Origin: Candidatus Dojkabacteria bacterium
GTDB taxonomy: Bacteria; Patescibacteriota; Dojkabacteria; B142; JAFGMG01
Direction of reading: 5' to 3'
Assembly (NCBI GenBank): GCA_016927655.1
Contig: JAFGMG010000001.1
Coordinates: 34,818-98,817, forward strand
Length of the DNA stretch: 64,000 nt
The translations under genes and the position numbers were made by a program. This document shows positions 2,776-64,000 of this stretch, piece after piece. Under the pieces are notes generated by a model, which was given only the letters and a program-made list of their open reading frames with translations, had not been told where the DNA came from and did no database searches. Numbering within the stretch: position 1 is the stretch's first letter; the number at the start of each line of letters is the position of its first letter.

Positions 2776-3713
2776 TTTTTAAGTGAAAATCCAAAATCAG
2801 TTAATATTTCATTTAATTCTTCAAATGACTTGCTTCCCATTCCCCGATAATTCTCAACCTCTTCATAATCTTTTGAATCTAATTCATTTAGTGTAGCAAT
2901 TCCGGCATTCATCAAAGAATTTGTCAATCTTGTGGACATACTGACCTCGCTGATTTTTATTTTCTCTCCATCTTCCTCTTTTGTACTCTCTTTGCTCATT
3001 GAGGCAACCTCATCGGAATCTCCTCCAAAAATATTCACCAATTTATTTGCGATCATGTCATAAATTTCCGCTGCTTCCAGGAGAACTTCGGCTGGAGTTT
3101 TTACTTTGTTCGTAGTGATATTTAGATTTATCAAATCATAGTCAGTTCTTTGTCCAACTCGAGCTTGTGCAATCTGATACTCAACCCTCACAACAGGATT
3201 AAAGTTCGCATCAATTGGTAAATTCCCGATTTCTTTTCTAATGCTCTCATCAGGATATGCATATCCGATACCCCTTTTTATCCTTATTTCCGCATCAATT
3301 TTGCTTGCAGCTCCTGATAAAGTTGTAATAACAAGATCCTTATTTACAATCTCCACATCAGCATTTGGCTCGATGTCTTTAGCTGTAATTTCGACTACGT
3401 CACCTTTTTTGCCTTTCTTACTTAGCTTCAATACTACGTCATCTTGAGTATGTGAAACTATGGCGAGCTCTTTGATATTTAGTAAAATAGCCAAAACGTC
3501 ATCCTGGACTCCTTCTAAAGAACTATACTCATGATCTACTCCGTTTAGCTTTACTCCAACAACTGCTGCGCCCTCGATTGAAGAAAGAAGTATTCTTCTT
3601 AAAGAATTTGCGACTGTATGTCCGAATCCTTTTGGCAATGGACCGATTTCATATTCACCATGTTCCCCGTCTTCTTTTATTTTCTTTAGTTTAAATTTGT
3701 CAATTTCCAGCAT
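2772..3713 (-). CDS. rpoA: DNA-directed RNA polymerase alpha subunit
   Basis: 313 aa. Has the N-terminal dimerisation domain pattern (GHTVANSLRRILLSS) and lies between S4 and L17 as in the conserved alpha operon. Confidence 0.9.
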   Translation of the reverse strand: MLEIDKFKLKKIKEDGEHGEYEIGPLPKGFGHTVANSLRRILLSSIEGAAVVGVKLNGVDHEYSSLEGVQDDVLAILLNIKELAIVSHTQDDVVLKLSKKGKKGDVVEITAKDIEPNADVEIVNKDLVITTLSGAASKIDAEIRIKRGIGYAYPDESIRKEIGNLPIDANFNPVVRVEYQIAQARVGQRTDYDLINLNITTNKVKTPAEVLLEAAEIYDMIANKLVNIFGGDSDEVASMSKESTKEEDGEKIKISEVSMSTRLTNSLMNAGIATLNELDSKDYEEVENYRGMGSKSFEELNEILTDFGFSLKK

Positions 3714-4851: not shown

Positions 4852-5235
4852 TCAAGTTTTTTCAATCTTTCTTTTTAGGCCGCCGACTGCAATATTCCTA
4901 CCTTTTCTAGTAACGGCATTAGTTCTAGTCCGCTGACCTCTAACTGGCAGACTCAATCTGTGTCGCAAACCCCTATAGGATTTGATATCTTTAAGCCTTT
5001 TTATATTTTTGAAAACCTCCTGTTTGAGCTCTCCTTCAACTGTAAAGCTCTCCTCAACGACTTGTGCAATTTTCATCAATTTTTGCTCGTCGAGGTCTTT
5101 TACCCTGACTAACGGATCAATATTTACCATTTTGAGAATTTTTGCTGATGCCGCGTCGCCTACTCCATAAATATAGGTAAGTGCAACTCCGATTCCCTTT
5201 TCGTTTGGTATTTCTACTCCTAATATTCTAGCCAT
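4852..5235 (-). CDS. rpsM: 30S ribosomal protein S13
   Basis: MARILGVEIPNEK..., then GIGVALTYIYGVG and a C-terminal RGQRTRTNA. Confidence 0.9.
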   Translation of the reverse strand: MARILGVEIPNEKGIGVALTYIYGVGDAASAKILKMVNIDPLVRVKDLDEQKLMKIAQVVEESFTVEGELKQEVFKNIKRLKDIKSYRGLRHRLSLPVRGQRTRTNAVTRKGRNIAVGGLKRKIEKT

Positions 5236-5265
5236 TTTTCAAAATATTAATTAAATGTAAAGAGT

Positions 5266-9878: not shown

Positions 9879-10280
9879 TTACCAAATTTTGCATAAAAGT
9901 TCTCCTCCTACTTGCTCTTCTTTTGCTTTTTTCCCTGTTAAAAGACCTTTTGGAGTTGTTAAGATACTTATTCCAAGCCCATATTTGATCCTGCCGATAT
10001 CTCTATAACCTGAATATATTCTGACTCCAGGTTTTGATATTCGAATTAGTTCTTTGATCGCTGATTCGCCGTTTATATATTTCAATTTCAAATTAAGTTG
10101 TTTTTGGACTTCTTTCTCTTTTGGCTCTTCAACCTTATAGTCTAGAATATATCCCTCTTCCTTCAAAATCGCTGCTATAGCCTCCAGCATTTTTGTGGAA
10201 GGAACATTCAATGTTTTCTGTTTTCTTGCTATAGCATTCCTTATTCTTGTTAGGAAGTCTGCTATTGGATCATTGACCAT
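9879..10280 (-). CDS. rpsH: 30S ribosomal protein S8
   Basis: MVNDPIADFLTRIRNA... is the S8 signature start. Confidence 0.9.
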   Translation of the reverse strand: MVNDPIADFLTRIRNAIARKQKTLNVPSTKMLEAIAAILKEEGYILDYKVEEPKEKEVQKQLNLKLKYINGESAIKELIRISKPGVRIYSGYRDIGRIKYGLGISILTTPKGLLTGKKAKEEQVGGELLCKIW

Positions 10281-10305
10281 GATTTATCTCTTAAATTAAT
10301 TAAAT

Positions 10306-10515
10306 TTACCAACTTGATTTTGTAACACCGGGCAGCAATCCTTCGTTTGCTTTTTCCCTGACACAAATTCTACACATCCCGAAGTGCCTTATATACCCTC
10401 TTGTCCGGCCACATTGAGAACATCTGCTAAATACTCTTGTCGGCTTTTTTAGGGTGCCTTTTTTGCTTTTTTCTTTTAGCTTTTTTGCTTTGTGTTCTTG
10501 TGCTGCTGTACTCAT
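10306..10515 (-). CDS. rpsZ: 30S ribosomal protein S14, type Z (zinc-binding)
   Basis: 69 aa with a CxxC...CxxC pattern ([20 protein letters not shown]). Confidence 0.85.
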
Positions 10516-10538
10516 TATTTCTTTACAATTTATTTAAA

Positions 10539-11099
10539 TTATTTCGCTTTTTTCACAAAAGGCATTCCCAGATATTTCAATAAAAGCAAACTATTTTCAT
10601 CATTTGAGTTTGCGATATTGATATTGACCTGCATACTAAATGCCTTTGTAACTTTGTTTGTGTCAACCTCGGGAAAAACTGTATGCTCCCTCAATCCTAA
10701 AGAATAGTTTCCCCTTCCATCGAAAGCTTTGTTAGAAATACCTCGAAAATCTTTCAATCTTGGCAACACGATACTTACTAACCTGTCATAAAACTCCCAC
10801 ATTCTATCCCCTCGAAGGGTAACTTTTAGTCCGATATCCTGTCCCTTTCGGATTTTAAAGTTTGAGATAGCTTTCTTGGATTTTGTAATAACCGGTGCCT
10901 GGCCCGCGATCATAGAAATATCTTCAATCGCTTGATCGAACGCCGCCTTGTCTTCCTTGGCACTGCCAAGTCCAACATTTATTACAATTTTATCCAATTT
11001 TGGCAGTGCCATAATATTGGCATCTCCCAAATCTTGTTTAAGCTTTTTAATTATCTCCTCTTTGTATAATTTTTTGAGTCTTGGTATGTAATTTTTCAT
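10539..11099 (-). CDS. rplE: 50S ribosomal protein L5
   Basis: 186 aa with L5 family motifs and the expected position. Confidence 0.9.
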   Translation of the reverse strand: MKNYIPRLKKLYKEEIIKKLKQDLGDANIMALPKLDKIVINVGLGSAKEDKAAFDQAIEDISMIAGQAPVITKSKKAISNFKIRKGQDIGLKVTLRGDRMWEFYDRLVSIVLPRLKDFRGISNKAFDGRGNYSLGLREHTVFPEVDTNKVTKAFSMQVNINIANSNDENSLLLLKYLGMPFVKKAK

Positions 11100-11425
11100 T
11101 TTTTATTAACTGTTTTTTTGCTGTTATTTTTTTTTACTGTCTCTTTTTTTGTTTTGATTTTCTGCTTTGCTTCAATTCTTTTTCTAGTTGTCTTCCCGCT
11201 ATCTGGTGAAACCAGCATCACGTTCGAGACGTGAATTGGAGCTTCAATTTCGATTCGGCCGCCAGGGTTATTTTTATCCCCAGTGTTTTTTTTGTGTTTT
11301 ATAACTTTATTTACACCTTTGATCACAACTCTACCCTTTTTAGGCAGCACTTTTAAAACCTCGCCTTGTTTACCTCGGTCTTTTCCAGTTATGACTTGTA
11401 TCAAATCTCCTTTTTTTATCTTCAT
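11096..11425 (-). CDS. rplX: 50S ribosomal protein L24 with a Lys-rich C-terminal tail
   Basis: KOW motif: [25 protein letters not shown]. Confidence 0.85.
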
Positions 11426-11805
11426 AATACTTCTGGTGCTAAACTAACAATTTTATTGAAACCTTTGTCTTTTAGTTCTCTTGCAATTGGACCAAAAATC
11501 CTGGTTGCTTTCGGCTCTTTTGTGTCTTTATTGATAATCACGGCAGCATTATCATCAAATCTAATATAACTTCCTTCTTTTCTTCTTACTTCTTTTTTAG
11601 TTCTAATGACTACTGCATATACAATTTCTCCCTGCTTGTAGCTTGTGTTTGGCTGTACCTTTTTCGCACTGGCACTTACAAGTTCTCCCACAGTTCCAAA
11701 TCTCTGATGTTTCCCGCCTTTTTTCCTGCCGAGGACTTGGATCACCATGATCTCTTTTACTCCGCTATTATCTGCAATTTTTAGTCTTGATAAAGATTGA
11801 ATCAT
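11422..11805 (-). CDS. rplN: 50S ribosomal protein L14
   Basis: [26 protein letters not shown] is an L14 signature. Confidence 0.9.
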
Positions 11806-52659: not shown

Positions 52660-53796
52660 TTATTTCCCCACTTTTTGTTCGAAATTCTCTCTTTTTCTAA
52701 TTGCCCTGTTTTCTCTAGCCTGCTTAGTCCTCTCATACATATCAATGACAAATCCTTTTATATTGAATTGAAGAAGGAATAATCCTCCAACAATTGCAAG
52801 GGCAGCATAGAGTAATTCGTCTGTTTTATCATCAATTATTGCCGTTTTCGGAAGTCCGCCGTCAACCGGGATATATGCTTCGCATCTGCATGTTGTAGTG
52901 CAGGTTTCGCCACTCAAACAGCCAGTAGGATTTGCTGCATAATCGCAGTACTCACCCGGATCAAGAGTGCCATCGCCGCACGTTTCAAGAACCTCTTCGC
53001 AAAGACAGGTTCTCGTATTGCAAGTAAATCCCTCCTCACAGTCTACACCAACCTCGCATTCCTCGTCGTCCTGGTTGATCTCGCCATCACCGCAAGTTGC
53101 TTGTGTTGTAACTGTTTTACATAGACATGTTGTAGTGTTGCATTTCTTACCAGCATAAGTACCCGTGCAGGGGATTCCGACTTCGCACTGTTCACTGGTT
53201 TGATTTATCTTGCCATCTCCGCATTTTGGCTCTGCTGGCACACACCGGCAAACACCCGTATTTACCCCACCGCCATCAGCATCGATTTGTACGCAATAGC
53301 CAGGAGAATATGCTCTATAGGTCGCTCCAGCTTGACCATCTTCATTGGCATAATTTGTCCCGTTCGAAGCATCTGTAATACAATCTGGGTAGAATGTATG
53401 ACTTGTACCAGTATATGCTCTTCTAAATTTCTTGATTTTTACACTGCTGGTACAGCCAGAGCTTAAAGAAAATGAAGTCACATCACCGCTAACTGTTGCA
53501 TAACAGGAGGTTGTTCCCTGACATTGAGACCAGCCTGCCATCCATTCATCCGTGGTATCACACCTTCCATCTGCCCAATCCCCACCGGTACAACACTTGT
53601 TGCAATCTTGAGTTTCAACACACCAGCCACATCCTGCATTACATTGTCCAGCAACAGAAGTATCTTCGGTCGTCTCCGTAGGCGTTTCCTCCTGTGTCAG
53701 TTGATATCCGAAATAAATTGCTCCAGCTCCTAGTGCAAGAGCTACAATTATCAGGATAATGGTGATTGTTTTGTTCATAGCAAGATGTCTCAACAA
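52660..53796 (-). CDS. cysteine-rich surface protein with tandem CGDG(x)4-6EEC repeats. N-terminal TM plus a C-terminal TM with a short basic tail
   Basis: KCGDGKINQTSEQCEVG, TCGDGEINQDDEECEVG and TCGDGTLDPGEYCDY resemble the Myxococcus-type cysteine-rich repeat. Confidence 0.5.
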   Translation of the reverse strand: MLRHLAMNKTITIILIIVALALGAGAIYFGYQLTQEETPTETTEDTSVAGQCNAGCGWCVETQDCNKCCTGGDWADGRCDTTDEWMAGWSQCQGTTSCYATVSGDVTSFSLSSGCTSSVKIKKFRRAYTGTSHTFYPDCITDASNGTNYANEDGQAGATYRAYSPGYCVQIDADGGGVNTGVCRCVPAEPKCGDGKINQTSEQCEVGIPCTGTYAGKKCNTTTCLCKTVTTQATCGDGEINQDDEECEVGVDCEEGFTCNTRTCLCEEVLETCGDGTLDPGEYCDYAANPTGCLSGETCTTTCRCEAYIPVDGGLPKTAIIDDKTDELLYAALAIVGGLFLLQFNIKGFVIDMYERTKQARENRAIRKRENFEQKVGK

Positions 53797-54778: not shown

Positions 54779-54853
54779 GGTGGTTGTAGCTCAATTGGTT
54801 AGAGCACCGGTTTGTGGTACCGGGGGTTGTGGGTTCAAGTCCCATCTACCACC
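54779..54853 (+). tRNA. tRNA-His (anticodon GUG) with G-1 and discriminator C. CCA is encoded immediately 3' (to 54856)
   Basis: Hand-folded: G-1, acceptor GUGGUUG/CUACCAC (one mismatch), UA, D-arm GCUC-AAUUGGUUA-GAGC, anticodon stem CCGGU/ACCGG with loop UUGUGGU, T-arm GUGGG-UUCAAGU-CCCAU. Confidence 0.8.
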
Positions 54854-56305
54854 CCATACTGTACTATCTTCCAAATTTGCAAGTAGATTGAACGGTTCTA
54901 AGTAGTCGTAGTGCAGTTTTTTGCCATCCCATGTAACGTTCTGAAGTACAGTCTTGATTAAAAGCTGAGCTTCATGAGGTTCCGAACGTTTAAATAACTC
55001 TGCACTATGCTTAGCCAGCTCTACAATAAGGTTTGCGGTCACATAGAAGGCTCTATCGACCTTTTGTACATTGGTTAATTTCCTTTCTATTTCGTCTAGT
55101 TGAGATTGATACTGTTTGTTCTTTTTTTCATACAATTCATTAGTAATACTTTCATCATATTTATCATCTAGTAGTTTTAGCATTCTATTATTAATAGCCT
55201 CTCTTTCTGAAACCAGATGTTTTATCAGGTCTTTTGAAATACCGTAGCTAGTCTCATTTAAATCTCTTAGGTCTTTGAGTACTTTTTCTGCAGTATTTTT
55301 ATCAAGTTGGATATTCTTAAAAGCTTTGGCAAATTGGTTCTTAAGAATTTCCTCACTTACATATTGAGCTCCATGCTTTCCTCCGTATTGTGTACATCTG
55401 TAATAGTTTTTCCCTCTTTGTTCTTCTGGGCTTAATGTATAACCGCAGACAGAGCATTTTATTAATGTTCTATAATGGAACTCCTTGCCCCTATATTTTT
55501 CTTTTCCATCCCATTTTGTTCGTCCTTCTTTAATATCTTGTACTTGATTAAATAAGTGTTCAGATACTATCGTTTCGTAGATATGTGGATACTCAAGATT
55601 TTTCTTTTTGTAGGTTGCAATGCCTATATAAAACTTATCTCCAAGTATTCTACCTATCATGGATTTACCAAGTTTTATATTATAGTCTTCAAGTATTTTT
55701 GCTGATAGTTGGCTCATTGAGTAAGTTTGTGTTGCGTATAATTCATATAGCTTTGCAACAACAATAGCCTCAATAGGTACTACTTTAACTGTCTTAATGC
55801 CTTTATCTGCATCAATAGTTATATTTTTATATCCAAATGGAGCTTTAGTAAGTATTTCTCCACTTTTTACTTTTACATCTATTTTCCTTTTTACATTGTC
55901 ACTTATAGCATCCGAATAATATTGAGCGAGTAATGCCCCAAGGTTAAATTTGAATTTCTCTGTAGCATATGAGTTCTTATCAATAATCAAGTTTTCAGAT
56001 GAAAAATGTAGTACAACTTTATCATCGTCTAATAGCCTTTGTATAGGGACTATGTGCATGAAATTTCTTAGTAGTCTGTCTACCTTATCGACTACCAATG
56101 CCACTTTCTCTTTTTGTGACTCAACATGCTTAATTACTGCATCAAACTTTTCTCTTTGAGTTTTATAAGCTGATTCGTGGAAGTCAAAAACATCTTGTTC
56201 AGAATATGTGAAGTTCACTTTTTCAGCATAGTCCTTCAACTTCAACAGCTGACCATCTGTTTCTTGTTCGTCTGTTGATACTCTAGCTAAAAGAATTGCT
56301 TTCAT
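54791..56305 (-). CDS. large serine recombinase (resolvase/invertase catalytic domain + recombinase domain + zinc ribbon)
   Basis: N-terminal ILLARVSTDEQ (catalytic Ser) and VDRLLRN. C-terminal CSVCGY...YYRCTQY zinc ribbon. The last ~25 codons of the ORF are antisense to tRNA-His. Confidence 0.8.
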   Translation of the reverse strand: MKAILLARVSTDEQETDGQLLKLKDYAEKVNFTYSEQDVFDFHESAYKTQREKFDAVIKHVESQKEKVALVVDKVDRLLRNFMHIVPIQRLLDDDKVVLHFSSENLIIDKNSYATEKFKFNLGALLAQYYSDAISDNVKRKIDVKVKSGEILTKAPFGYKNITIDADKGIKTVKVVPIEAIVVAKLYELYATQTYSMSQLSAKILEDYNIKLGKSMIGRILGDKFYIGIATYKKKNLEYPHIYETIVSEHLFNQVQDIKEGRTKWDGKEKYRGKEFHYRTLIKCSVCGYTLSPEEQRGKNYYRCTQYGGKHGAQYVSEEILKNQFAKAFKNIQLDKNTAEKVLKDLRDLNETSYGISKDLIKHLVSEREAINNRMLKLLDDKYDESITNELYEKKNKQYQSQLDEIERKLTNVQKVDRAFYVTANLIVELAKHSAELFKRSEPHEAQLLIKTVLQNVTWDGKKLHYDYLEPFNLLANLEDSTVWGGRWDLNPQPPVPQTGALTN

Positions 56306-56310
56306 GTTTG

Positions 56311-57261
56311 TTAATAATTTGATCCATAAGTCTTATTTGTTAGTTCTGCCATAGTCTTCGAATTCAGGATATCTTCCAACTTGTAGTATCTAGGACCATA
56401 GAGAGCTAATTGAGGGGTATCACCTAAGATTACAGGATTCTCAAGTTTTTGAATGTTTCCATCATGATGAATAATGTACTTTCCTGGTTTACCTTCAAAT
56501 GGCTCAATTTTGGTAATTTTTGCATAATATCTAATACTACTGATTGGGGCGGCTTCGTAAAGTGCAACGTATTTTAATTTATCAATATTTGATTGACCTA
56601 TCCTTACAGCCCACCAAGCATTTTTCTCTTCGAAAGCCTTTATTCTTCCCTCTCCTTTACATGGTCCTACGATTGTATCGTAAACTCTCTCAGCATTTGT
56701 CTGATGCTCTTTTACTGGCTTTTCTTCTATTGCTACATCACCTTCATCTTTAAGTGGCTCAAAAAGGTTAAAGCCCAAAGTAGAAACGAGTAGTTCAACG
56801 TCATCAAAGAAATCTAGAATTGTTTCCTGTTTAAATTCATGAAGGTTGTTTTGGTTTGGATTTGTCCTATTTTGCACTTCAAATCTTCCTATTTCGATTG
56901 CCTTCATTACTGCATATGATTCAAGGAACTTAACATCTGCTTTATCTAGGCTTCCATTCGAAGATACTACTACTACTGCCCATTGCCAAAAATCTTTATT
57001 GACCTCGTGATTTTTTATTCGGTGGATAAAATTTTCACACTCTCCGATGTAAACACTTGTTCTTTCATCATCAAATAACATATACAAAGCAGGAGATGTA
57101 AGGTCTTGTCTTGTATTTGCAAAACTAATTTGATTCCTTGGGATTACATAGACTTTAGCTGTACTAACAGATAATTCAGCGATTTTCACTCCATTAGGAT
57201 CAGAGTCTTTAAGAAAAATCTGTATTGTTTTTGCTCGTGCCATGTTTATTTTATTAATCAA
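56311..57261 (-). CDS. GIY-YIG (T5orf172-like) nuclease domain protein with a C-terminal domain of unknown function
   Basis: ALYMLFDDERTSVYIGECENFIHRIKNH fits the GIY...YIG...N...R...H pattern. Confidence 0.45.
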   Translation of the reverse strand: MINKINMARAKTIQIFLKDSDPNGVKIAELSVSTAKVYVIPRNQISFANTRQDLTSPALYMLFDDERTSVYIGECENFIHRIKNHEVNKDFWQWAVVVVSSNGSLDKADVKFLESYAVMKAIEIGRFEVQNRTNPNQNNLHEFKQETILDFFDDVELLVSTLGFNLFEPLKDEGDVAIEEKPVKEHQTNAERVYDTIVGPCKGEGRIKAFEEKNAWWAVRIGQSNIDKLKYVALYEAAPISSIRYYAKITKIEPFEGKPGKYIIHHDGNIQKLENPVILGDTPQLALYGPRYYKLEDILNSKTMAELTNKTYGSNY

Positions 57262-57262
57262 A

Positions 57263-59149
57263 TTATGCTACCCAAAGGTTTTGACCAAATATACTCTTTA
57301 GATTCCACTTCTTTGTAGTGTCTACAGCCCGCTCTAAGCATATAAATCGCATGTCTTTCATGCCTTCCAGTATCTTTAGTGTTGAATTACTTATCGTGTC
57401 GTCTAGACACACTAGAGCTTCTTTCTCACCATCTGAAATCTTCCATATTTTGTTTTCTTTTATCTCTTCAATTAGTTCTTTATTGAAAGTAAGTTTGAAT
57501 CCATCTTTTAGAGCGATTTCATAAAGTAACTCTTCTTCTTCAAATTCAAACTTCATTTGAGACTTTGCTTTTTCTAAGTACTCCTCAAAAGCTTTCATAT
57601 TCTCATCTTCTGATTTCTCAGGATCAGGTGTAAATTGATTTTCAGGGAAGAAGCTAGGAGCCAATTTGAATACTTTAAATCCCAAATCGAGATTTTTACC
57701 ATCTTTGAGTAGTTTCCCTTCGTCTTCTTTCTTAATTTTTTCCGAAACTCTTTTAACTCTTTCAATACAGATATCTGATATTGTTTTATATCCTGCTTTG
57801 TACGCTTCACTCTTTTCATCTGTAAGTTCAGGAAGTTGTACTAGTATGTATTTTCTATTCCCACCATCTTCTTTATTTAGTTCCATTACTGCATGAGCAG
57901 TAGTTCCTGAGCCTGCAAAGAAGTCTAGAATTATATCGTCATTTTTACCATCAGAGGAAAGTTTTAATAGGTGCGATAATAGCTGGACTGGTTTGGTATA
58001 GTTGAAATAGTTATAGTTAAATATACTAAGAAAATCTAATGTAGCTGATTGTGTACTTCCTGCAATTGAGTGATCTAAAAATGAACGAGGTACGACCTTC
58101 TCCGCTTCACTAAGAAATTGCTTTTTTCTTGGGGATTTACTATTCCCGTCACTTCCCCAATAAAGCAAATTGTCCTCTAAATGCTTTTGATGTGTTTCTT
58201 TTGAATAGGCCCATACTGCAGTCTCACGTGGCCATATTTCCTCTCCTGTATTTGGATTTATAATAGGATAATACAAATTTGGTCTCTCATTTTTATTCTT
58301 ATTGCATGTATATGCAGCAGAATTCCAAGCACCTCGAGGATCATTATCGGGATTGGAATAATATGAGTTTTGTTTCGCTGTTCTTTCAAGTCGTTGTGGA
58401 TACCAGCTGTTTTTATCCTTTCCATAAACAAGTAAGTATTCATGATCACTGCTAAACCATTTTGAATCGTTTGCTGGAGAAACCCTTTTTTTCCAAACGA
58501 GCATAGCTACAAAATTTTCCTCTCCAAACACCTCATCCGTTATCTTTCTCAAATTATGGACTTCATTGTCATCAATACTCACGAATATAACTCCGTCATC
58601 TTTTAGAAGTTCTCTTGCTAAAACAAGCCTTGGATACATCATGTTTAGCCAATTGCTATGGTATCTACCTTGTGTTTCTGTGTTTGTATCTATCTTTACT
58701 CCATTTTCTGTAGTTCCACTCTTTTCCCAATATGCTTTTTTATCTTCTGAATAGTTATCTGAATATACAAAATCATTTCCAGTATTGTATGGAGGATCAA
58801 TATAAATACATTTAATCTTTCCTGAATATGACTTTTGTAAGAGCTTTAGAACCTCTAGATTGTCTCCTTCTATTATCATATTGTCTGTACTCTCAAACTC
58901 TATACTTCGCTCCTTGTCAGGCGTTAGATTCGCTCTGCTAGGCTTGTAGGCATTCCTTTTAGCAGATATTTTACCTGCCCAATTAAATTCATATTTACCT
59001 GTTGCAAGACTTGGATAGTTTTTACTCAAAAGTTCAAGCTCTTTGATGTCTAAAACCCCGTCTTCATTGAATAATTGAGGCATAGCACTTTGGAGTGCTT
59101 TAAGCTTTTCTTCTTGTAAATCGAGTGACTGTTTGTTGATTTTGTTCAT
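57263..59149 (-). CDS. mod: Type III restriction-modification methyltransferase (Mod). Beta-class N6-adenine / N4-cytosine MTase
   Basis: Motif IV YIDPPYNTGNDF near the N-terminus, motif I FFAGSGTTAHA near the C-terminus (beta permutation), and a central variable region. Confidence 0.75.
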   Translation of the reverse strand: MNKINKQSLDLQEEKLKALQSAMPQLFNEDGVLDIKELELLSKNYPSLATGKYEFNWAGKISAKRNAYKPSRANLTPDKERSIEFESTDNMIIEGDNLEVLKLLQKSYSGKIKCIYIDPPYNTGNDFVYSDNYSEDKKAYWEKSGTTENGVKIDTNTETQGRYHSNWLNMMYPRLVLARELLKDDGVIFVSIDDNEVHNLRKITDEVFGEENFVAMLVWKKRVSPANDSKWFSSDHEYLLVYGKDKNSWYPQRLERTAKQNSYYSNPDNDPRGAWNSAAYTCNKNKNERPNLYYPIINPNTGEEIWPRETAVWAYSKETHQKHLEDNLLYWGSDGNSKSPRKKQFLSEAEKVVPRSFLDHSIAGSTQSATLDFLSIFNYNYFNYTKPVQLLSHLLKLSSDGKNDDIILDFFAGSGTTAHAVMELNKEDGGNRKYILVQLPELTDEKSEAYKAGYKTISDICIERVKRVSEKIKKEDEGKLLKDGKNLDLGFKVFKLAPSFFPENQFTPDPEKSEDENMKAFEEYLEKAKSQMKFEFEEEELLYEIALKDGFKLTFNKELIEEIKENKIWKISDGEKEALVCLDDTISNSTLKILEGMKDMRFICLERAVDTTKKWNLKSIFGQNLWVA

Positions 59150-59151
59150 AT

Positions 59152-61818
59152 TTAGAAAATATTAAGATTAAGTTTGTTATTCGCCTTTGATTTAAAATCA
59201 GTAAAGCTTTCTACAGGTGCTAAGTACTCTTTTAGTCCAATAGCTTCAAAGTGTTTAATAGCACATTGTATTTTCATCTTCTCTGTTTCCTTTAGTTGAT
59301 TCCATTCTGTAGAACCTTTTGTTTCTATTACAAAGTAGTACTTTGTTGATTCTCCATCTTCAAGCGAGGTCTTTTCTAAAACAAGTGCAAAATCTGGATT
59401 GTATTTGCCAATTGGAGTATCGATCTCATACCATTTGGGAAGTTTTATAAATGCTTTGACCTTATTTTCATTATCAACTCCAAGTGTGAAGTCTTTCTCA
59501 ATATCTGAGTCGTAAATCACACCATCGTATAAGCCATTTTTAACTGGAACAATTTCACCGTATGTTTCGATAATTTCTTGAAAGAGCGAAGTATCGTAGC
59601 TATAGCCTAAGGTCTGATAATTCACTAGATTTACCATTTCATCTTCAAGTATGTGCTGAATCCTTTTAACTGCCTCTGCTACATAGATAATTGGATTTTT
59701 GTTAAGCATATGTTTATTATTTAACCCTTCAAATATCTGAATAACTGTATTTACACTTAGTGCAGTTTGTTCGGATATTTCATCTACAAAATCTATACTC
59801 ACAACTGATACCTTTGAAACAGCTTCATCACTTCCTACATGTCTTGAGCTTTCTGTAATGCCTACATCTTCAGATAGAGATTGAATTTTGTTAAGCTCTG
59901 AAATGATAGTTTGTTCTTGTACTACTATCTCGTTAAGTGATTCGATACATTTATCTACTAGCTCAGGTTCTCTAAATACAACAGAGTATTTAGTTTTTTG
60001 AGATATTTTCTTCCATAAGTTTTTAAAGTCATCACCTCCTAGAACTGATTTATTAAGCTTAATTTTATTGAGGTTCTTTCTGGCATCTCTTGGTTTTGGT
60101 AGAGGTGATTTAGTACCAAATTCTTCGATAAGTTCGCTTTGATAACTTTCAGCAAAAGAATAATAGCTTTGATTTGCAACAACCGTTAGTAAATTCACTT
60201 CTTGACCTTCTGAAATGTCTTCTGCATCTCTGTATCGCTTACCATCTTGCATAACTGATATTCTCAAACCTCTTCCTATCTCTTGCCTTTTCTTGATCGT
60301 ACTTTCGGATTCATTTAGTGTACAGATGTTAAACACATTCGGATTATCCCATCCAACGCCTAAAGCAGAGTGAGAGAATATAAATTCAAGTGGCTCATCA
60401 AATGAAAGCAATCTCTCTTTATCTTTCATAATAAGGTTGAATATCTCACTGTTTTTTGTCATTGAGTTCTCATTATCTGTATACTCTCCTGTTGATTTTG
60501 TCTTTGCAAAATAACCGTTATGAACTTTAGCTATATCATCAGGCTCAACTCCATATTTATTCTTGAACTCTTCTTGATAGATTTCTACAAATAACTTTCT
60601 AATAATTCCGTCTACTTCAACATAGTTAGCAACTCTATCAATGAAAAACAGTGATAAGACTTTAATGTCCTTTTCTTTATAAATTTCTTTTTTCTGGAAA
60701 TGTTTTTTAATCGTCCATCTTATTTGTTCTCTAAAAATTCCTTCTTTGTCCCACCCAATTTTATTCCCTTTAGTAAGTTCTGTTCCGTTAGAGAATCTAA
60801 CTTTTTCAGTACCATCTAGAGGATCAATCAAAATTCTACTAATTACCCAACCTCTGTATACAGGGTTCTTAGTTTTTTCTTCCAAATTATCACCATCTTT
60901 AAAATACATAGATTTAGTCCGAAGTTGATTTCCAAAGCTCACATTTAGCTTGGCCTCAGGCGGTTTTCCAGTATTTGAAGTTCGGAGTCCTTCGAACATA
61001 ATCTGTACATTACTCTGCATATTACTCTCATGAATTGAGAATACTTCTATCTTTTTAACCAAACCTTGATTATATGCATCATAAGGTGTTAATCGATAAA
61101 CCAGGTTAATTTGCTTTTTGTGTGTAGCAGAGTATCTTAATTTGAATAGAGGATTGAGTCCTGCAAATCTTTTCTTCATATTAGCTGAATCCATGCCCTC
61201 TTGTGGCTCATCCATTATGATAATAGGATTTGTTTGCTTGATTAGGTCAATGAGTTTAACTCCTTGGTTTGAATCTCTTTCTTGATTGATAATCCTGTCA
61301 TCCGTATTGAATGCTTGTACATTAGTAACCATGATTTGAAGTGTATTTCCAGTTGCAAAGTTTCTAACTCTTACAGGCTTTTTACTGTCGTATTCAAAGT
61401 AGTCTGCTTTTGTGTTGTAGAGCTGTTTAAAGTGTTGTTCTGTCATTTTAAGTGTTTTTATAACACCCTCTTTGACAGGAATACTTGGGACAACAATAAT
61501 AAACTTGTTTAATCCATATTCTTTGTGAAGCTCTAGAATTGTCCTTAGATAAACATAGGTTTTACCTGTACCTGTTTCCATTTCAATTGAGAAATCTAGT
61601 GTATCTTTATCTAAAAATGTTTCTAAAATTGAATTTTCTGTAGTAATTTGATTGAAGTTTTCAAATACCTTTTCAGGAGTGATTTTTAATACATTTTTTG
61701 AGACCTCACTGAATACTCTATTTTCAGCTTTAATGTAGGGTGCTCCATCAAAGAGCTTAACTACTGAGTTAATAGCATCTATTTGGTACTGTAAGTTTGG
61801 TTCAAATTGTATTTTCAT
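59152..61818 (-). CDS. res: Type III restriction endonuclease Res subunit (SF2 helicase-like ATPase + nuclease)
   Basis: Walker A METGTGKTY, DEAH-like box IIIMDEPQ, ~890 aa. Sits immediately upstream of and co-oriented with mod. Confidence 0.7.
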   Translation of the reverse strand: MKIQFEPNLQYQIDAINSVVKLFDGAPYIKAENRVFSEVSKNVLKITPEKVFENFNQITTENSILETFLDKDTLDFSIEMETGTGKTYVYLRTILELHKEYGLNKFIIVVPSIPVKEGVIKTLKMTEQHFKQLYNTKADYFEYDSKKPVRVRNFATGNTLQIMVTNVQAFNTDDRIINQERDSNQGVKLIDLIKQTNPIIIMDEPQEGMDSANMKKRFAGLNPLFKLRYSATHKKQINLVYRLTPYDAYNQGLVKKIEVFSIHESNMQSNVQIMFEGLRTSNTGKPPEAKLNVSFGNQLRTKSMYFKDGDNLEEKTKNPVYRGWVISRILIDPLDGTEKVRFSNGTELTKGNKIGWDKEGIFREQIRWTIKKHFQKKEIYKEKDIKVLSLFFIDRVANYVEVDGIIRKLFVEIYQEEFKNKYGVEPDDIAKVHNGYFAKTKSTGEYTDNENSMTKNSEIFNLIMKDKERLLSFDEPLEFIFSHSALGVGWDNPNVFNICTLNESESTIKKRQEIGRGLRISVMQDGKRYRDAEDISEGQEVNLLTVVANQSYYSFAESYQSELIEEFGTKSPLPKPRDARKNLNKIKLNKSVLGGDDFKNLWKKISQKTKYSVVFREPELVDKCIESLNEIVVQEQTIISELNKIQSLSEDVGITESSRHVGSDEAVSKVSVVSIDFVDEISEQTALSVNTVIQIFEGLNNKHMLNKNPIIYVAEAVKRIQHILEDEMVNLVNYQTLGYSYDTSLFQEIIETYGEIVPVKNGLYDGVIYDSDIEKDFTLGVDNENKVKAFIKLPKWYEIDTPIGKYNPDFALVLEKTSLEDGESTKYYFVIETKGSTEWNQLKETEKMKIQCAIKHFEAIGLKEYLAPVESFTDFKSKANNKLNLNIF

Positions 61819-62028
61819 TTATTTCATTAAGTCATCAATTGATATGTTTAGAGCTTTGCAAAGCATAACCACCTGCAAAAAGGCAGGATTTTTTGTTTTT
61901 CCTGTTTCAATCTTTGTAATAGTGGAGTAGCTGACACCTGATATCAAGGCTAAATGCCTTTGTGTTATATGTTGAGATTCTCTTTCTTCTCGAATTTTTG
62001 TTACAACTTTTTTTATTACACTTTCCAT
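61819..62028 (-). CDS. XRE-family HTH transcriptional regulator
   Basis: HTH_3 motif ITQRHLALISGVSYSTITKIETGK. Confidence 0.75.
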   Translation of the reverse strand: MESVIKKVVTKIREERESQHITQRHLALISGVSYSTITKIETGKTKNPAFLQVVMLCKALNISIDDLMK

Positions 62029-62029
62029 A

Positions 62030-63097
62030 TTATGAAACAGTATATGGTATTTTATGTTGCTTTGTAAAATTGTTTAATCTTATTGGCTTGTAGTTTATTA
62101 ATTGTCTTTCTATCTCTGTTATCCAATTTTCAGTCTTTTTATCTATAGGAAGTTTCTTCATCAATTGGTTAAGTGAGTACCACGTCTCCCTTGAGTATCT
62201 ATATTCAATAATTTCTCTCACCCTTTTCAAACCTATCTCTTTGGTAAGTACATACATTGCAAAGATATTATTGACAGTCCTAATTCTCATTTTCGGATTA
62301 CTCATAAGAATTTCAGCATAGATTGTTTCTAAAGAAATATCCTCATATGAAAAGCTGATTAATTCTTTAGCCAGAATATCCCAATATGACTTGCATAAAT
62401 CGGTAAGGAAATAGTGGGAGGTGAGTTTTACTAATGTGTTATTATCTTTTTCTAAAGCCAATTCTCTTAAGATAACACTTTCCATTTTTAACCTAATTTC
62501 TAACCTCAAAATTTGAAAGCCATTGTTTCTCAGTAAAGTAACTAATTGTTTATTTGCTTTCTCTTTGGTTAATTCTGCAACTTTATCGTAAATAATAATT
62601 TCCCTTGATTTATTACCGATTCTCAAACTACTTCCGTTGTTGTTATAGTCTCTAATAAGACCGCTAAACCTATTACTCCAATTAGTACCTCGTAACTTAT
62701 CAATTATCATTGAGGGGAAGATATTTGATGGTAGTATTACGTTCTTACCAAAATGAACTTTAACAACCTTTGCTTTATTGAGCTCATTAAGTGGTATATA
62801 AACATCCATTTTATCAAGTGTCTTTTGTAATACTTCAAAAAGCTTTTGAATGTCATTTTGAGAAAGTTCTTCAAGATTGTTTCCGAATAGCAATTTGGGG
62901 GCTGAAAACTCAATGTATAAATATTCTTTGCTGTAACCTCTACTGCGAATTCTTAATGATGGAAAATAATCTTTGCTTTTGGTTGCCTCATGTATACGGT
63001 CATAATATCCATTACCTTTTCTTATAATACTGAATTTTGATTTATTATTGATTTTGAACTTTTTCTCATCCAACCTCAAAGTTATTGTGTCTATCAT
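62030..63097 (-). CDS. hypothetical protein, possibly a replication-initiation-like protein of a phage or plasmid
   Basis: 355 aa. The N-terminus MIDTITLRL... is reminiscent of replication initiation factor family starts. Very weak. Confidence 0.2.
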   Translation of the reverse strand: MIDTITLRLDEKKFKINNKSKFSIIRKGNGYYDRIHEATKSKDYFPSLRIRSRGYSKEYLYIEFSAPKLLFGNNLEELSQNDIQKLFEVLQKTLDKMDVYIPLNELNKAKVVKVHFGKNVILPSNIFPSMIIDKLRGTNWSNRFSGLIRDYNNNGSSLRIGNKSREIIIYDKVAELTKEKANKQLVTLLRNNGFQILRLEIRLKMESVILRELALEKDNNTLVKLTSHYFLTDLCKSYWDILAKELISFSYEDISLETIYAEILMSNPKMRIRTVNNIFAMYVLTKEIGLKRVREIIEYRYSRETWYSLNQLMKKLPIDKKTENWITEIERQLINYKPIRLNNFTKQHKIPYTVS

Positions 63098-63377
63098 TTA
63101 ATTCATTAAGTTTTCTAATTACTTCTTCCTCAATAACTTTTCCGATTTCTTTGTTGATTGGATAAAAGATGGCAATACTTCTTTCACCTCTTTGTTTAGT
63201 GGGATATACAAGGCGATATGAGCCATCTAGGCGGGTGAAAATAGCAATTGAGCTACAATAGATCCCTTCAAATAAAACGAATGTACAAAATGCGATTAAA
63301 CCATCTTTTGGCTTTACTGGAATTATCTCTATCTCTGAAATTATATTAGTTGTTCTTAACAAGTTTCTCTCTTTCAT
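63066..63377 (-). CDS. spoVG: SpoVG-family nucleic-acid-binding protein
   Basis: IAFCTFVLFEGIYCSSIAIFTRLDGSYRLVYPTKQRGERSIAIFYPINKEIGKVIEEEV parallels the SpoVG core [59 protein letters not shown]. Confidence 0.55.
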   Translation of the reverse strand: MKERNLLRTTNIISEIEIIPVKPKDGLIAFCTFVLFEGIYCSSIAIFTRLDGSYRLVYPTKQRGERSIAIFYPINKEIGKVIEEEVIRKLNELNDRHNNFEVG

Positions 63378-63566
63378 TTATCTTGATGAGGGTTTCAATA
63401 AATGTAACAAGTCTTGCACTAGCATCTGGTTTGCTTAGTACTTCTTGTAGTCTTTTCTGTTTTAGTGCGACTTGCTCGTTTTTCATAATAAGAGCTTATC
63501 GCTTGCATGAAGAATTATCCCTTTGGTAGGGATATTTGGGGTGGTTTAGTGGTGTTTAGGGGCGTT

Positions 63567-63998
63567 TTAGTATTCTAGTTTTTCAATTCCGAGTTCTAAT
63601 AAATCCCTTTGTGTAATAGGATTATTAAACTGTATATGTGTTTTTGAGATATTGAAAAACACTTTTCTTAGATTTCCTTTAAATCCGAGATTCTCGACAA
63701 TTTTATCAAAGCTTTTGCCTACTGAAATTTTACCTTGTTGCTTTATCTCATCTTTAGACCATGGTTTATTAGGGTTGTTGTATAGGAAATCAAACACTAA
63801 ATCATTTTCCTGCATAAAGTTGGGCTTTCCAATTTCATGTTCGCCATCAAGTAGGATTCGCCTATCTTTTGTTAAAGATATTTTATGAATAACTGGATTT
63901 TCATCTAAATCACCAGCAATAATCGACTTAACCAATTGATTTGTTAATCCAGCTTCAAAACGGAATAGGATTAAAGGATTGTAGTAGAGATTTAGCAT
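63567..63998 (-). CDS. hypothetical protein
   Basis: 143-aa ORF with no recognisable motifs. Confidence 0.3.
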   Translation of the reverse strand: MLNLYYNPLILFRFEAGLTNQLVKSIIAGDLDENPVIHKISLTKDRRILLDGEHEIGKPNFMQENDLVFDFLYNNPNKPWSKDEIKQQGKISVGKSFDKIVENLGFKGNLRKVFFNISKTHIQFNNPITQRDLLELGIEKLEY

Positions 63999-64000
63999 GT

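Follow-up and report, generated by a model that had tools for sequence, protein, structure and literature searches.

Integration at the 3′ ends of tRNA genes is usually the work of tyrosine integrases and rarely of serine integrases (PMC4383910, and the passages on serine integrases in PMC7192596). In reviews of island integration, serine integrases are not known to use such sites (PMC4383910). The passages on serine integrases in the TIGER report (Mageeney et al. 2020, PMC7192596) place 14 of 297 S-Int elements in t(m)RNA genes, while the corresponding passages on tycheposon-like elements of Prochlorococcus assign a large serine recombinase (LSR) to 27 of 937 tRNA-island elements (bioRxiv 10.1101/2020.12.28.424599). 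Both are computational counts for which these passages call for experimental proof, and neither set of passages describes an element family, the anatomy of the att sites, an overlap of int with the tRNA gene or a T-loop motif. Among integrative elements more generally, those of the pSAM2 type (AICEs) are presented with tRNA-type targeting in the relevant part of PMC2440964.

The locus described herein lies in a chromosome of Candidatus Dojkabacteria (CPR), in a 64,000-nt stretch of DNA referred to as the window. With a probability of about 0.85, the region is read from its sequence as an 11,216-bp integrative element that was probably inserted by its own LSR into the last 7–8 bp of a tRNA-His gene, with a Type III R-M system and a PDC-S14-like protein as cargo. 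Its features are as follows; coordinates beyond 64,000 are window-equivalent.

54780–54856, plus strand: tRNA-His (GTG), the integration target (ARAGORN and sequence reading)
54833–54839: T-loop GTTCAAG, which reads CTTGAAC in the orientation of int, 14 nt after TGG
54850–54857: attL core CACCCCAT, tRNA positions 70–76 plus 1 nt, repeated at attR
54791–56305, minus strand: LSR (integrase), 504 aa as integrated; Pfam Resolvase, Recombinase and Zn_ribbon_recom; PHROG integrase, 1.7e-63
56311–57261, minus strand: PDC-S14-like protein, 316 aa, probable GIY-YIG N-terminal domain; PADLOC PDC-S14, 3e-56
57263–59149, minus strand: Mod, Type III methyltransferase, 628 aa; Pfam N6_N4_Mtase, 5.9e-37; PADLOC MTase_III, 1.1e-190
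59152–61818, minus strand: Res, Type III restriction subunit, 888 aa; Pfam ResIII, DEAD and RE_endonuc; PADLOC REase_III, 1.1e-206; NCBIfam PRK15483, 1e-89
61819–62028, minus strand: XRE-type HTH regulator, 69 aa; Pfam HTH_3, 8e-13
62030–63097, minus strand: Rep_trans-fold rolling-circle replication initiator (or relaxase), 355 aa
63066–63377, minus strand: SpoVG-family protein, 103 aa, overlapping Rep by 32 nt; Pfam SpoVG, 1.2e-3
63346–63486, minus strand: small conserved ORF, 46 aa; gene call in contig L001, tblastn matches in five related loci
63567–64000, minus strand: 3′ part of a 324/334-aa backbone protein without assigned function (L001 8807/8837–9811)
64608–65408, beyond the window: HTH + Peptidase_M78 regulator
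65648–65929, beyond the window, plus strand: DUF3892 gene
65938–66072, beyond the window: displaced C-terminal coding segment of int, an open frame with a conserved motif
66066–66073, beyond the window (L001 7305–7312): attR core CACCCCAT, an identical 8-mer adjoining the conserved attP-arm (integrase-arm) motif

Both junctions are thus present and have the core in common. An earlier note on this DNA had described a mobile element at tRNA-His that continues past the window; it does so by 2.07 kb, and its mobility is supported by the second att copy, by a relative that lacks the element and by the occurrence of the same backbone at other tRNA genes. The element has a GC content of 0.33, compared with 0.39 for the remainder of the window (0.37–0.39 outside the element), and the stop codon of a host kinase lies 1 nt from attR. 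In the relative (L094), the kinase is followed by tRNA-His in the same orientation without such an element between them, although its kinase is only 68% identical and one extra gene separates it from the tRNA. The ORFs of the earlier note were recovered in place on the minus strand. Their common orientation holds for everything within the window, and fails only for the DUF3892 gene on the other strand beyond it.

The tRNA-His gene is intact, with an encoded CCA and a U6·U67 mismatch. Its terminal bases come from the element, so that the gene survives the insertion. The reading frame of the recombinase extends past the junction and, on the other strand, into the tRNA: its last 22 codons (54791–54856) are antisense to tRNA-His, and a tryptophan codon, TGG, is the antisense of CCA. 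This antisense overlap had been missed in the earlier note.

The earlier note had also suggested looking for a repeat of the tRNA 3′ segment beyond 64,000. The copy at attR stands next to the conserved arm motif; it is only 8 bp long, short of the length typical of tyrosine integrases. A search rule that combines the first 6 nt of the antisense tRNA with N15–17 and T[TC][CA]G[AG]A[CA], in this order, has a single match upstream of int in seven of 56 loci, this element included. The rule gave no site on the opposite strand or at three other spacings and two in 20 shuffles, i.e., about 0.1 matches expected by chance against the seven found. In these seven loci both junctions were recovered, with cores of 7–10 bp that have CCA and the next 3 nt in common. 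Judging from the repeated core, the crossover must lie inside CACCCCAT, with its dinucleotide expected close to tRNA positions 71–72.

In LSR sites, one motif is shifted by 5 bp, lying nearer to the centre in attB than in attP (PMC3783163). In the present family, a T-loop-like motif stands 14 nt after TGG in the tRNA arms versus 19 nt in attP-type arms, and contigs in which int has a non-tRNA tail also have it at +19. Given this 5-bp outward displacement of the equivalent motif in attP arms, the T-loop is proposed as the zinc-ribbon-domain motif of an attB-type arm; the integrase would read the tRNA acceptor end and T-loop as an attB half-site. A test of the attP arms for dyad symmetry gave a weak signal at inconsistent positions (best centres at z of about 2.8) and no clear P′ arm motif, and the P arm of one locus (L078) could not be located in L079, a close relative.

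When the int side of attL is fused to the element side of attR, int regains, in frame, a conserved C-terminal extension of 44 residues. Therefore, attP lies inside int, and integration, on this reconstruction, exchanges the last 30–45 residues of the integrase. All seven reconstructed attP junctions are in frame and have the pattern W..(L/V)D.F(R)T in common. Junctions of the attP type also occur inside long chromosomal contigs (L063, L088 and L089); for L088, a further explanation is called for, in which integration went through a second LSR. The integrase itself, a serine recombinase as first described, has 872 homologues. A profile of its catalytic domain matches the TP901-1 integrase (3bvp, 1.8e-9), and sequence searches gave no solved LSR that matches it over the full length. 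No recombination directionality factor was identified.

A survey of 80 metagenomic loci with related LSRs points to what is apparently an undescribed, large family of small replicating elements with serine integrases at tRNA gene 3′ ends. A convergent tRNA gene (His, Asn, Asp, Glu, Gln, Arg or Pro) is present at at least 58 of the loci: ARAGORN detected a tRNA on the opposite strand in 53, and five more tRNAs are interrupted by group I introns. The distance from the conserved Pro-Phe codons of int to the tRNA 3′ end is 39 nt in 47 loci, 41 nt in seven and 40 nt in one. Among homologues from protein databases, 45 of 120 have antisense T-arm tails and 52 of 120 stop within four residues of the tryptophan position. 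The targeting of tRNA by a serine recombinase, which the earlier note had called less common, is indeed so in the literature (PMC4383910, and the passages concerned in PMC7192596), yet it is the rule in this LSR family.

The elements measure 6–11 kb and keep a fixed gene order: a protein of about 330 aa without known function, SpoVG, a Rep_trans-type Rep, usually XRE, a cargo slot and the LSR. The slot, between Rep/XRE and int, ranges from 37 nt (about 0 kb) to 6.8 kb and holds mostly R-M genes. One member (L043), with int, SpoVG, Rep and an MvaI/BcnI restriction enzyme, is a 7.6-kb contig with a terminal overlap of 123 nt and is therefore circular. The gene block is not ancestral: rather than being conserved in all relatives without att duplication, the same backbone stands beside seven tRNA species in unrelated hosts, and once as this circular contig.

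Most gene assignments of the earlier note were borne out. Mod has DPPY ahead of FxGxG, the order of the beta class, and Res combines a helicase with a C-terminal endonuclease. The 316-aa protein had been called a GIY-YIG/T5orf172-type nuclease; T5orf172 gave no match, GIY-YIG is weak (Pfam sub-threshold at E 0.068, PHROG endonuclease at 7e-4 and a hand-read motif), and the solid match is PDC-S14, a PADLOC candidate system that covers its N-terminal 184 aa. A PDC-S14-like gene is also present in the related element L002. The XRE gene was considered as an R-M control protein and rejected as such: it belongs to the backbone and lies between Rep and int in cargo-less relatives too (L014, L015 and L017). 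The possible replication initiator has a fold that matches the Rep_trans family in general and an extra helical C-terminal part of about 130 residues. It has no Pfam match of its own, but it matches phrog_702 (1.6e-4), and its homologues match Phage_CRI (G2P replication initiator) most strongly; no replication origin or nick site was identified. SpoVG falls under the Pfam cut-off in the window (19.4 vs 29.6 bits), whereas its homologue on the circular contig (tblastn, 52% identity) exceeds it (34.9 bits, 1.7e-8); the window copy is 61% identical to that in L006, and SpoVG is present in 29 loci. The 324/334-aa protein continues to 64541/64571, and its C-terminal part is conserved in seven loci.

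Given a backbone of rolling-circle Rep, SpoVG, XRE and LSR, the element resembles, by its gene content, an integrative plasmid or genomic island. Rep would initiate rolling-circle copying of the excised circle, and XRE together with the HTH/M78 protein would set the switch between the integrated and excised states. The R-M cargo would shield the host from phage and would stabilise the element through post-segregational killing.

Other explanations have to be weighed against this reading. The least unlikely is an integrative mobilizable element, in which the Rep_trans-fold protein is a MOBT-type relaxase that nicks an oriT, rolling-circle copying is secondary and the excised circle is moved by a conjugation or DNA-uptake apparatus encoded elsewhere. 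Proteins of the Rep_trans family act as relaxases in elements of the Tn916, ICESt3 and ICEBs1 type, the fold match is to this family in general, and a size of 6–11 kb without own transfer genes would suit such an element. However, the strongest matches of the Rep homologues are to the G2P initiator, neither the element nor the scanned ORFs of the window include a coupling protein or T4SS gene, and we know of no conjugation system in CPR bacteria; the circular metagenome contig, moreover, fits upkeep as a circle. A phage satellite or decayed prophage, with int, XRE, HTH-M78 and Rep as the remnant or parasite of a temperate phage and spread in phage particles, is rather improbable. The ImmA/ImmR-like HTH-M78 fusion and XRE are regulators typical of prophages and satellites, PHROG matches exist for int, Rep and the PDC-S14-like protein, two IMG/VR viral contigs (L008 and L009) have distant LSR relatives at their ends, and satellites often carry defence cargo. 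Against this, neither the element nor the backbone conserved across 45 related loci yielded a gene for capsid, terminase, portal, tail or packaging, single-protein scans of viral contigs with int and Rep came up empty, and the uniform small size and complete att sites fit decay poorly. The prophage-like nature proposed earlier was rejected, as the proteins scanned include no structural or packaging gene.

A fixed island, in which an ancient integration left a junction-truncated integrase inactive or re-used for another role, seems slightly less probable still. It would account for an integrated integrase without its native 44-residue C-terminus; the organism is known from one sample only, and its genome offers no read-level sign of excision. 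A Logan contig does break inside tRNA-His, which says nothing on excision, because another contig breaks at tRNA-Arg. The ORFs of the element, in contrast, are all intact and tightly packed, the att core and P-arm motif are undecayed, and the displaced C-terminal segment is still an open frame with its conserved motif. In addition, the sister element L002, with an integrase 74% identical, sits at a tRNA-His of different sequence, implying recent independent integrations. Mere coincidence of an int–tRNA overlap and a short repeat, with an unrelated resolvase or invertase beside an ordinary chromosomal R-M locus, is scarcely credible. An 8-bp repeat alone is expected by chance in 18 kb; nevertheless, the 39–41-nt geometry recurs in 55 loci and seven tRNA species, and the attR counts, the conserved frame restored in attP and the existence of a circular form speak against it. 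The tRNA geometry, attR counts and attP frame already contradict this reading.

The integrative element preferred here combines traits of several described systems. Its Rep is 11–13% identical to pT181 RepC/RepD, RepSTK1, filamentous-phage G2P and the MOBT relaxases of Tn916 and ICEBs1, and differs from them by the helical C-terminal part. The filamentous phage phiRSM targets tRNA-Ser. As here, a serine recombinase integrates a small rolling-circle replicon at a tRNA gene, but the phiRSM enzyme is small and resolvase-like, without Recombinase and zinc-ribbon domains, and the element type is unrelated. The relevant passage of PMC7192596 lists it as a site-specific integrase among S-Core enzymes.

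The islands of tyrosine integrases (Islander class; P4-like elements and AICEs such as pSAM2) likewise target the 3′ part of a tRNA gene that the element restores, have the integrase gene at the tRNA-proximal end and include defence genes in their cargo. In AICEs of the pSAM2 type, integration is also combined with a rolling-circle Rep. The enzymes of these islands belong to another family with a different chemistry, and the present repeat of 7–10 bp at the extreme tRNA 3′ end contrasts with the longer tRNA fragments used by Islander (PMC4383910). With the integrases of Listeria A118/LI, Bxb1, phiC31, TP901-1 and SPbeta, the LSR has in common the order Resolvase–Recombinase–zinc ribbon, a very short identity between partner sites, and short unequal attP/attB arms in which one motif sits 5 bp nearer the centre on the attB side (PMC3783163). 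Unlike in those phage systems, the target is a tRNA gene 3′ end, attP lies inside the integrase ORF, whose C-terminus therefore varies with the integration state, and the carrier is a Rep/SpoVG element of 6–11 kb instead of a phage. The TIGER and tycheposon-like elements with serine integrases, as far as the passages on them go, are also cargo-carrying elements at tRNA genes, some with replication genes, and those 14 and 27 integrases may include members of the present family. In archaea, the attP of SSV1-type integrases likewise falls within int; the SSV1 enzyme belongs to the tyrosine recombinases and is split into two large parts on integration. In both cases integration interrupts the integrase frame, and the integrated and free forms encode different proteins, but here only the last 30–45 residues are exchanged, and all recognised domains are kept in the integrated copy.

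The element at tRNA-His belongs to a family of integrative elements equipped with a serine integrase whose choice of target is unusual and systematic and whose C-terminus is set by the state of integration; the window copy is an ordinary member of this family. Nine close-set ORFs, all on the minus strand, extend from 54791 to the window end, beyond which the Logan contig L001 (SRR13394437), identical to the window over 9,203 nt, continues for another 9.4 kb.

Features of the tRNA-His locus and of its continuation past the window end
54780-54856, plus strand: tRNA-His(GTG), found by ARAGORN, intact
54791-56305, minus strand: recombinase (int), 504 aa, with the Pfam domains Resolvase, Recombinase and Zn_ribbon_recom
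Minus strand: XRE-type HTH regulator (Pfam), 69 aa
Minus strand: 355-aa protein (Rep), then a 103-aa SpoVG-like protein, then two more ORFs
Past 64000: remainder of a 324/334-aa protein
Past 64000: fusion of an HTH and a Peptidase_M78 (ImmA-like) domain
Past 64000, opposite strand to the other element genes: DUF3892 gene
Past 64000: host-like genes, including a histidine kinase split into two ORFs

From SpoVG to int, the intergenic gaps measure only -32 to +5 nt, and the packing extends to a 46-aa ORF (seven or eight genes, 54791-63486); the genes therefore resemble a single operon. No terminator precedes the int/tRNA-His junction, and transcripts of int or of the operon would then read antisense through tRNA-His. 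The GC content of the element is 0.33, against 0.39 in the remaining window (0.37-0.39 outside). On the host side, a tRNA-Arg gene sits 0.8 kb upstream of tRNA-His (ARAGORN). Upstream of it, at 52660-53796 on the minus strand, lies the gene of a 378-aa membrane-anchored cysteine-rich protein with CGDG.IN...E.CE repeats and no Pfam match, a host gene with no relation to the element.

Both junctions of the element have been located. The site attL, on the tRNA and int side, reads ...ACAGTATGGGGTGGTAGATGGGACTTGAAC..., and the far site attR (L001 7305-7312) reads ...GATTAAATGGGGTGAAACCTTAGACGCATTCAGAAC.... They share an 8-bp core, ATGGGGTG (CACCCCAT on the plus strand of the window), whose copies at 54850-54857 and window-equivalent 66066-66073 delimit an element of 11,216 bp. 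The second att copy that the earlier note proposed to look for past 64000 is thus present, as the core followed by a heptamer, and the element does run past the window end, as had been stated there. The stop codon of the host kinase finishes 1 nt before the attR core. For this genome, the reconstructed site of the free circle (attP) is ...GATAGTACAGTATGGGGTGAAACCTTAGACGCATTCAGAAC... and that of the empty tRNA gene (attB) is ...GAGGAGATTAAATGGGGTGGTAGATGGGACTTGAACC.... The 8-bp core at both ends, the integrase at one end and the intact tRNA-His are features of an integrative element.

The search for attR followed one rule, namely the first 6 nt of the antisense tRNA, then the heptamer T[TC][CA]G[AG]A[CA] at attP spacing, upstream of int. 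A single site was obtained in each of 7 of the 56 loci searched; the opposite strand and three other spacings gave 0 hits, and 20 shuffles of all loci gave 2. In the six other loci with both junctions (tRNA-His twice, Asn twice, Asp and Gln), the elements span 6.0-9.8 kb and the cores 7-10 bp. All attL/attR cores have 6 nt in common, CCA and the following three bases. A scan of the attP arms for dyad symmetry gave a weak, inconsistent signal and no defined P' arm motif, and the centre of the site was therefore placed by attL/attR identity and motif geometry. The geometry of the zinc-ribbon domain (ZD) motif in PMC3783163 would put the crossover near tRNA positions 71-72. LSRs cut with a 2-bp stagger at a central dinucleotide, which here is predicted to lie within CACCCC.

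A long repeat of the tRNA-His 3' segment, in the manner of tyrosine integrases, was looked for as well. No repeat of at least 12 nt occurs in 18.5 kb, no significant local alignment was obtained, and none of 43 related loci has such a repeat. A crossover deep inside the tRNA was consequently dropped, and the signature of tyrosine-integrase islands is absent. The short core explains why long-repeat searches failed, since the element supplies only the last few tRNA bases. Several other candidate signs were discarded as well. At L001 7894, 10 nt agree with the anticodon loop; 10-mers of this kind arise by chance, and the flank is not tRNA-like. A Logan contig that ends inside tRNA-His is no evidence of an alternative junction, as a neighbouring contig ends inside tRNA-Arg and tRNAs generally break assemblies. 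The U6.U67 acceptor mismatch (window 54785 and 54847) is no sign of a chimeric tRNA, both bases being on the host side of the crossover. No significant inverted repeat was found between the element ends. Inside the SpoVG-like ORF, at 63245-63258 on the minus strand, a 14-nt segment repeats the 5' part of tRNA-His exactly (TTGTAGCTCAATTG, acceptor/D-arm); it has a local alignment score of 14 against a maximum of 12.5 in 30 shuffles and may be due to chance.

An empty tRNA-His site was sought in relatives. The best available match to the flanking kinase, in L094 (68% identical), does not come from a close strain. L094 shows the order kinase, one surface-protein gene and tRNA-His; the tRNA gene has the same convergent orientation, and no LSR element separates it from the kinase. 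At the level of gene order, this arrangement in a distant genome supports insertion. The same contig has, at 5080-5250, a tandem duplication of about 130 nt that includes the last ~24 nt of tRNA-His, which could be the scar of another integration at the same tRNA end. When species-representative genomes were scanned with the D and anticodon arms of tRNA-His, no relative emerged, only two Sphingomonadaceae MAGs (L012 1921-1997 and L013 2503-2579), with a 37-nt stretch of D arm and anticodon arm identical to that of the window; this probably reflects plain tRNA conservation. Directly outside attR (L001 5529-7304, window-equivalent 66074-67849), the kinase consists of a 427-aa Phosphonate-bd ORF and a 159-aa HATPase_c ORF, whereas it is a single protein of 583/586 aa in L094 and L095. 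The split beside the insertion site could reflect a frameshift, a pseudogene or faulty assembly.

The recombinase matches Pfam Resolvase (9.2e-22, residues 3-150), Recombinase (5.4e-8) and Zn_ribbon_recom (1.2e-6), each over the cut-off, and a 504-aa protein with these three domains is therefore a large serine recombinase (LSR). Among 30 homologues, S10, the nucleophile of the resolvase catalytic domain, and R8 are invariant, as are C284, C287 and C304. The last 22 codons of int (...W GGRWDLNPQPPVPQTGALTN) are tRNA-His in antisense, the W codon TGG being the antisense of the encoded CCA. The earlier note had correctly seen a recombinase at tRNA-His and had missed this overlap of the two genes. 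Exact-protein look-ups of int and of a 256-aa neighbour gave no match, and sequence searches of the PDB with int, the PDC-S14-like and the SpoVG-like proteins returned nothing useful. At least 872 homologues of int are present in the protein database, and their bodies finish at a conserved P-F...W, beyond which the tails fall into three groups. Among the best 120 of these homologues, 52 stop within 4 residues, 45 resemble translated antisense T-arms (..DSNLQP.., ..DLNPQP..) and 7 have another conserved tail (..LDxFRT..).

The DNA of two relatives bears out what the tails imply. In L002, int is 74% identical to the window int, with the same gene order and cargo, and L006 (a Deltaproteobacteria MAG) carries a Type I R-M system where the window element has Type III. 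Both adjoin an opposite-strand tRNA-His, with int stop codons inside the antisense acceptor stem. The idea that 485-aa homologues represent the excised form proved wrong, as these stop codons merely fall within the antisense tRNA. Metagenomes were scanned with an alignment of 30 members of the family, on patterns from the N-terminal and middle regions of int and not from the tails, and 80 loci were obtained.

Surroundings of the int 3' end in the 80 loci
53 loci: opposite-strand tRNA overlapping the int 3' end (Asn 22, Asp 9, His 9, Glu 6, Arg 3, Gln 3, Pro 1)
5 loci: tRNA with a group I intron (Rfam)
6 loci: T-loop motif correctly placed, the tRNA being cut by the contig end or missed by ARAGORN/Rfam
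12 loci: tail not tRNA
4 loci: uninformative

The P-F codons and the tRNA 3' end are 39 nt apart in 47 loci, 41 nt in 7 and 40 nt in 1, and the tRNA genes of the 7 loci at 41 nt have no encoded CCA. This fixed geometry of 39-41 nt rules out chance adjacency. The intron-split tRNAs beside int relatives lie at L051 11508-11721, L060 3340-3565, L081 5812-6003, L056 10282-10475 and L091 1406-1582; Patescibacteria are known to have group I introns within tRNA genes (PMC13011429). Because ARAGORN misses such split tRNAs, elements there would also be missed by tRNA-based island finders. Scans of viral contigs with single proteins gave no match, and those with the alignment gave only four distant loci, each ending at int.

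The tails that are not tRNA would represent the free (attP) state. In 10 of 10 such loci, the DNA heptamer T[TC][CA]G[AG]A[CA] (F-R-T codons) stands 19 nt after TGG, and it stands at the same distance in 7 attR P arms. In the tRNA arms, the antisense T-loop (TTCGAAC or CTTGAAC) follows TGG after 14 nt, and the T-loop-type motif is thus 5 bp nearer the junction than in the non-tRNA arms. The attP and attB sites of LSRs are known to differ in length, the ZD motif of attB being 5 bp nearer the centre than that of attP (PMC3783163). By this geometry, the non-tRNA arms would be attP P arms and the T-loop of the tRNA would serve as the ZD motif on the attB side. For the window element, these motifs are GTTCAAG (T-loop, attB) and TCAGAAC (attP).

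When the int side of attL is joined to the element side of attR, the frame stays open for 29-42 more residues in 7 of 7 loci, and all seven reconstructed tails follow the pattern W..(L/V)D.F(R/Q)(T/K/N).. of the attP-type contigs. The tail reconstructed for the window element, WGETLDAFRTYLLSINLEDFNNKLRYLFEVFSINIQGAELVHPL up to the stop codon, aligns with those of L014, L020, P0017 and P0023 (...LD.FRT...FN(I/L)QP..). Such conserved in-frame tails at all seven junctions indicate that attP lies inside int and that the integrase of the free form is longer. On integration, the last 30-45 int residues are accordingly swapped for residues encoded by the antisense tRNA, and the integrated copy keeps all recognised domains. 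For the window element, the free circle is predicted to encode an integrase of 526 aa, with 483 residues up to and including the W codon and 43 beyond it, against 504 aa in the integrated form. One family member, L043, has a terminal overlap of 123 nt and assembles as a 7.6-kb circle with int, two small ORFs, a ~330-aa protein, SpoVG, Rep and an MvaI/BcnI restriction enzyme, in the order expected of an integrated element closed on itself. Its int tail matches the L042 and L035 reconstructions (...D(M/L)F..(H/R)E(I/L)EF...). A free circular form with attP has thus been found at the level of the family (L043 and the attP-type contigs) and not for the window copy.

Some attP-type junctions occur in long contigs. 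L088 has LSRs at 1832-3298 and 10001-11554, and L078 at 533-1624 and 10001-11470; in both, the second, distant LSR (22-25% identical) lies at the opposite end and the attP-type junction is intact. In L088 (a 905-kb contig), host-like Na/Ca-exchanger and signal-peptidase genes directly follow the full-length int. The two loci suggest composite elements integrated via the second LSR, which for L088 is the simplest reading. The P arm of L078 was looked for in its close relative L079 and was not found there. In L026 (8619-10190 and 11621-11695), an attP-type junction lies 1.5 kb from a tRNA-Asn with no int remnant between them, which could represent a tandem or decayed array.

The family shares a small backbone. 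In tblastn searches with the window proteins, 45 related loci gave a match to Rep and 29 a match to SpoVG; the order of the genes was constant, and both always preceded int on its upstream side. The possible replication initiator of the earlier note gained support: the Rep_trans fold was found for the window Rep (AF2 model with pLDDT 85.5 and pTM 0.81), which itself has no Pfam hit, and among 42 homologues 6 match Pfam Phage_CRI (G2P N-terminal, best 3.4e-9) and 3 match Rep_trans. Y170 is invariant. The SpoVG assignment holds for the L043 homologue (34.9 bits, 1.7e-8, over the Pfam cut-off), whereas the window copy stays below it (19.4 bits against 29.6); the copy of L006, 61% identical to that of the window, scores 24. 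The XRE regulator, also recognised earlier, is found between Rep and int even in the cargo-less L014, L015 and L017 and is therefore a backbone gene.

The slot between the Rep end and the int start measures 37 nt to 6.8 kb (43 loci). Among 59 ORFs in these slots, R-M genes dominate (Types I, II, IIG/ISP and III), accompanied by a Fic protein, an NYN nuclease, DUF3800 and a Schlafen-like ATPase. In the window, Mod matches PADLOC MTase_III over its full length (1.1e-190) and Pfam N6_N4_Mtase, and Res matches PADLOC REase_III (1.1e-206) and Pfam ResIII and RE_endonuc. The genes are ordered res then mod with a gap of 2 nt, and these profile matches identify them as the Type III R-M system already named from the sequence. 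The nuclease described as GIY-YIG/T5orf172 fared less evenly. This 316-aa protein matches PADLOC PDC-S14 (E 3e-56, residues 4-184 on profile positions 10-189 of 301), which leaves its C-terminal half uncovered; Pfam GIY-YIG remains below the cut-off (E 0.068, 13.9 bits against 22.6) and a Pfam search for T5orf172 gave no match. Since the motif Y-x10-YIG-x6-R-x3-H is readable, a GIY-YIG fold remains likely. No virion structural or packaging gene was found among the element proteins (PHROGs, Pfam), and no gene for Type IV secretion or a coupling protein in the 11.2 kb. The earlier description as "prophage-like" is not supported, while the reading as a mobile element with defence cargo is supported and the underlying observation is real.

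The choice of target varies among close relatives. When int bodies are grouped by rough distance clustering, not by phylogeny (loci L014-L093), the clade of the window int (at least 45-55% identity) uses only tRNA-His, whereas a second cluster, in which identity is at least 55%, is spread over Asn, Asp, Arg, Glu, Gln, His and Pro. In 51 of 64 cases, an int and its nearest neighbour have the same target tRNA. This distance clustering points to frequent target switching. A joint reading may be proposed, tentatively and with a probability of roughly 0.35. It holds that a large and widespread, mainly CPR family of serine integrases has specialised on the universal architecture of the tRNA 3' end (CCA end, acceptor stem and T-loop). 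Because half of attB would be generic tRNA, enzymes at least 55% identical could have moved from one target to another within a set of at least seven tRNA species. As attP lies inside the int frame, the free and the integrated form do not have the same last 30-45 residues, and the int C-terminus could act as a built-in sensor of that state and help to set the direction of recombination. Apart from this joint reading, the most likely mechanism starts from what has been shown, namely the anatomy of attL, attR and attP, the tRNA geometry of the family, the circular form and the domain identities. In this mechanism, the LSR would bring together an attP spanning the stop region of its own gene and the acceptor/T-arm end of a tRNA gene, and would exchange strands within the last bases of that tRNA gene. 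Excision would require a directionality factor, for which the small conserved backbone proteins are candidates. The circle would be copied by rolling-circle replication from Rep, the XRE and HTH/M78 proteins would regulate the switch between states, and the R-M cargo would provide defence, with post-segregational killing keeping the element in place.

For CPR/Patescibacteria, such elements would represent a common vehicle, easily overlooked for its small size, that moves R-M genes and further defence genes from one reduced genome to another; conjugation machinery is not known in these genomes. Large serine integrases are valued tools in genome engineering and are limited by their fixed target sites. 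If the joint reading is true, a natural family exists whose close relatives use different members of one conserved target class, and whose generic half-site, the T-loop, can be identified, which would provide a comparative data set for learning the rules of specificity. Genes for tRNA occur in every genome. In addition, a state-dependent integrase C-terminus is a new, testable idea for the control of directionality.

If true, the working rule that tRNA genes belong to tyrosine integrases would be overturned; it is because of this rule that island finders of the Islander type limit "integrase" to tyrosine recombinases (PMC4383910). A literature search of incomplete coverage returned no account of the present LSR family, of the overlap of int with a tRNA, of attP inside int or of the use of the T-loop. 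In the TIGER study, 14 of 297 S-Int elements are placed in t(m)RNA genes, a target which according to its authors "has not been reported previously" and for which "experimental proof will be required" (PMC7192596). In a preprint on Prochlorococcus, 27 of 937 tRNA-island elements carry an LSR (bioRxiv 10.1101/2020.12.28.424599). The preprint describes typical attachment sites in tRNA genes as roughly 40 nt long; in comparison, the repeats of the present LSR family are far shorter, at 7-10 bp.
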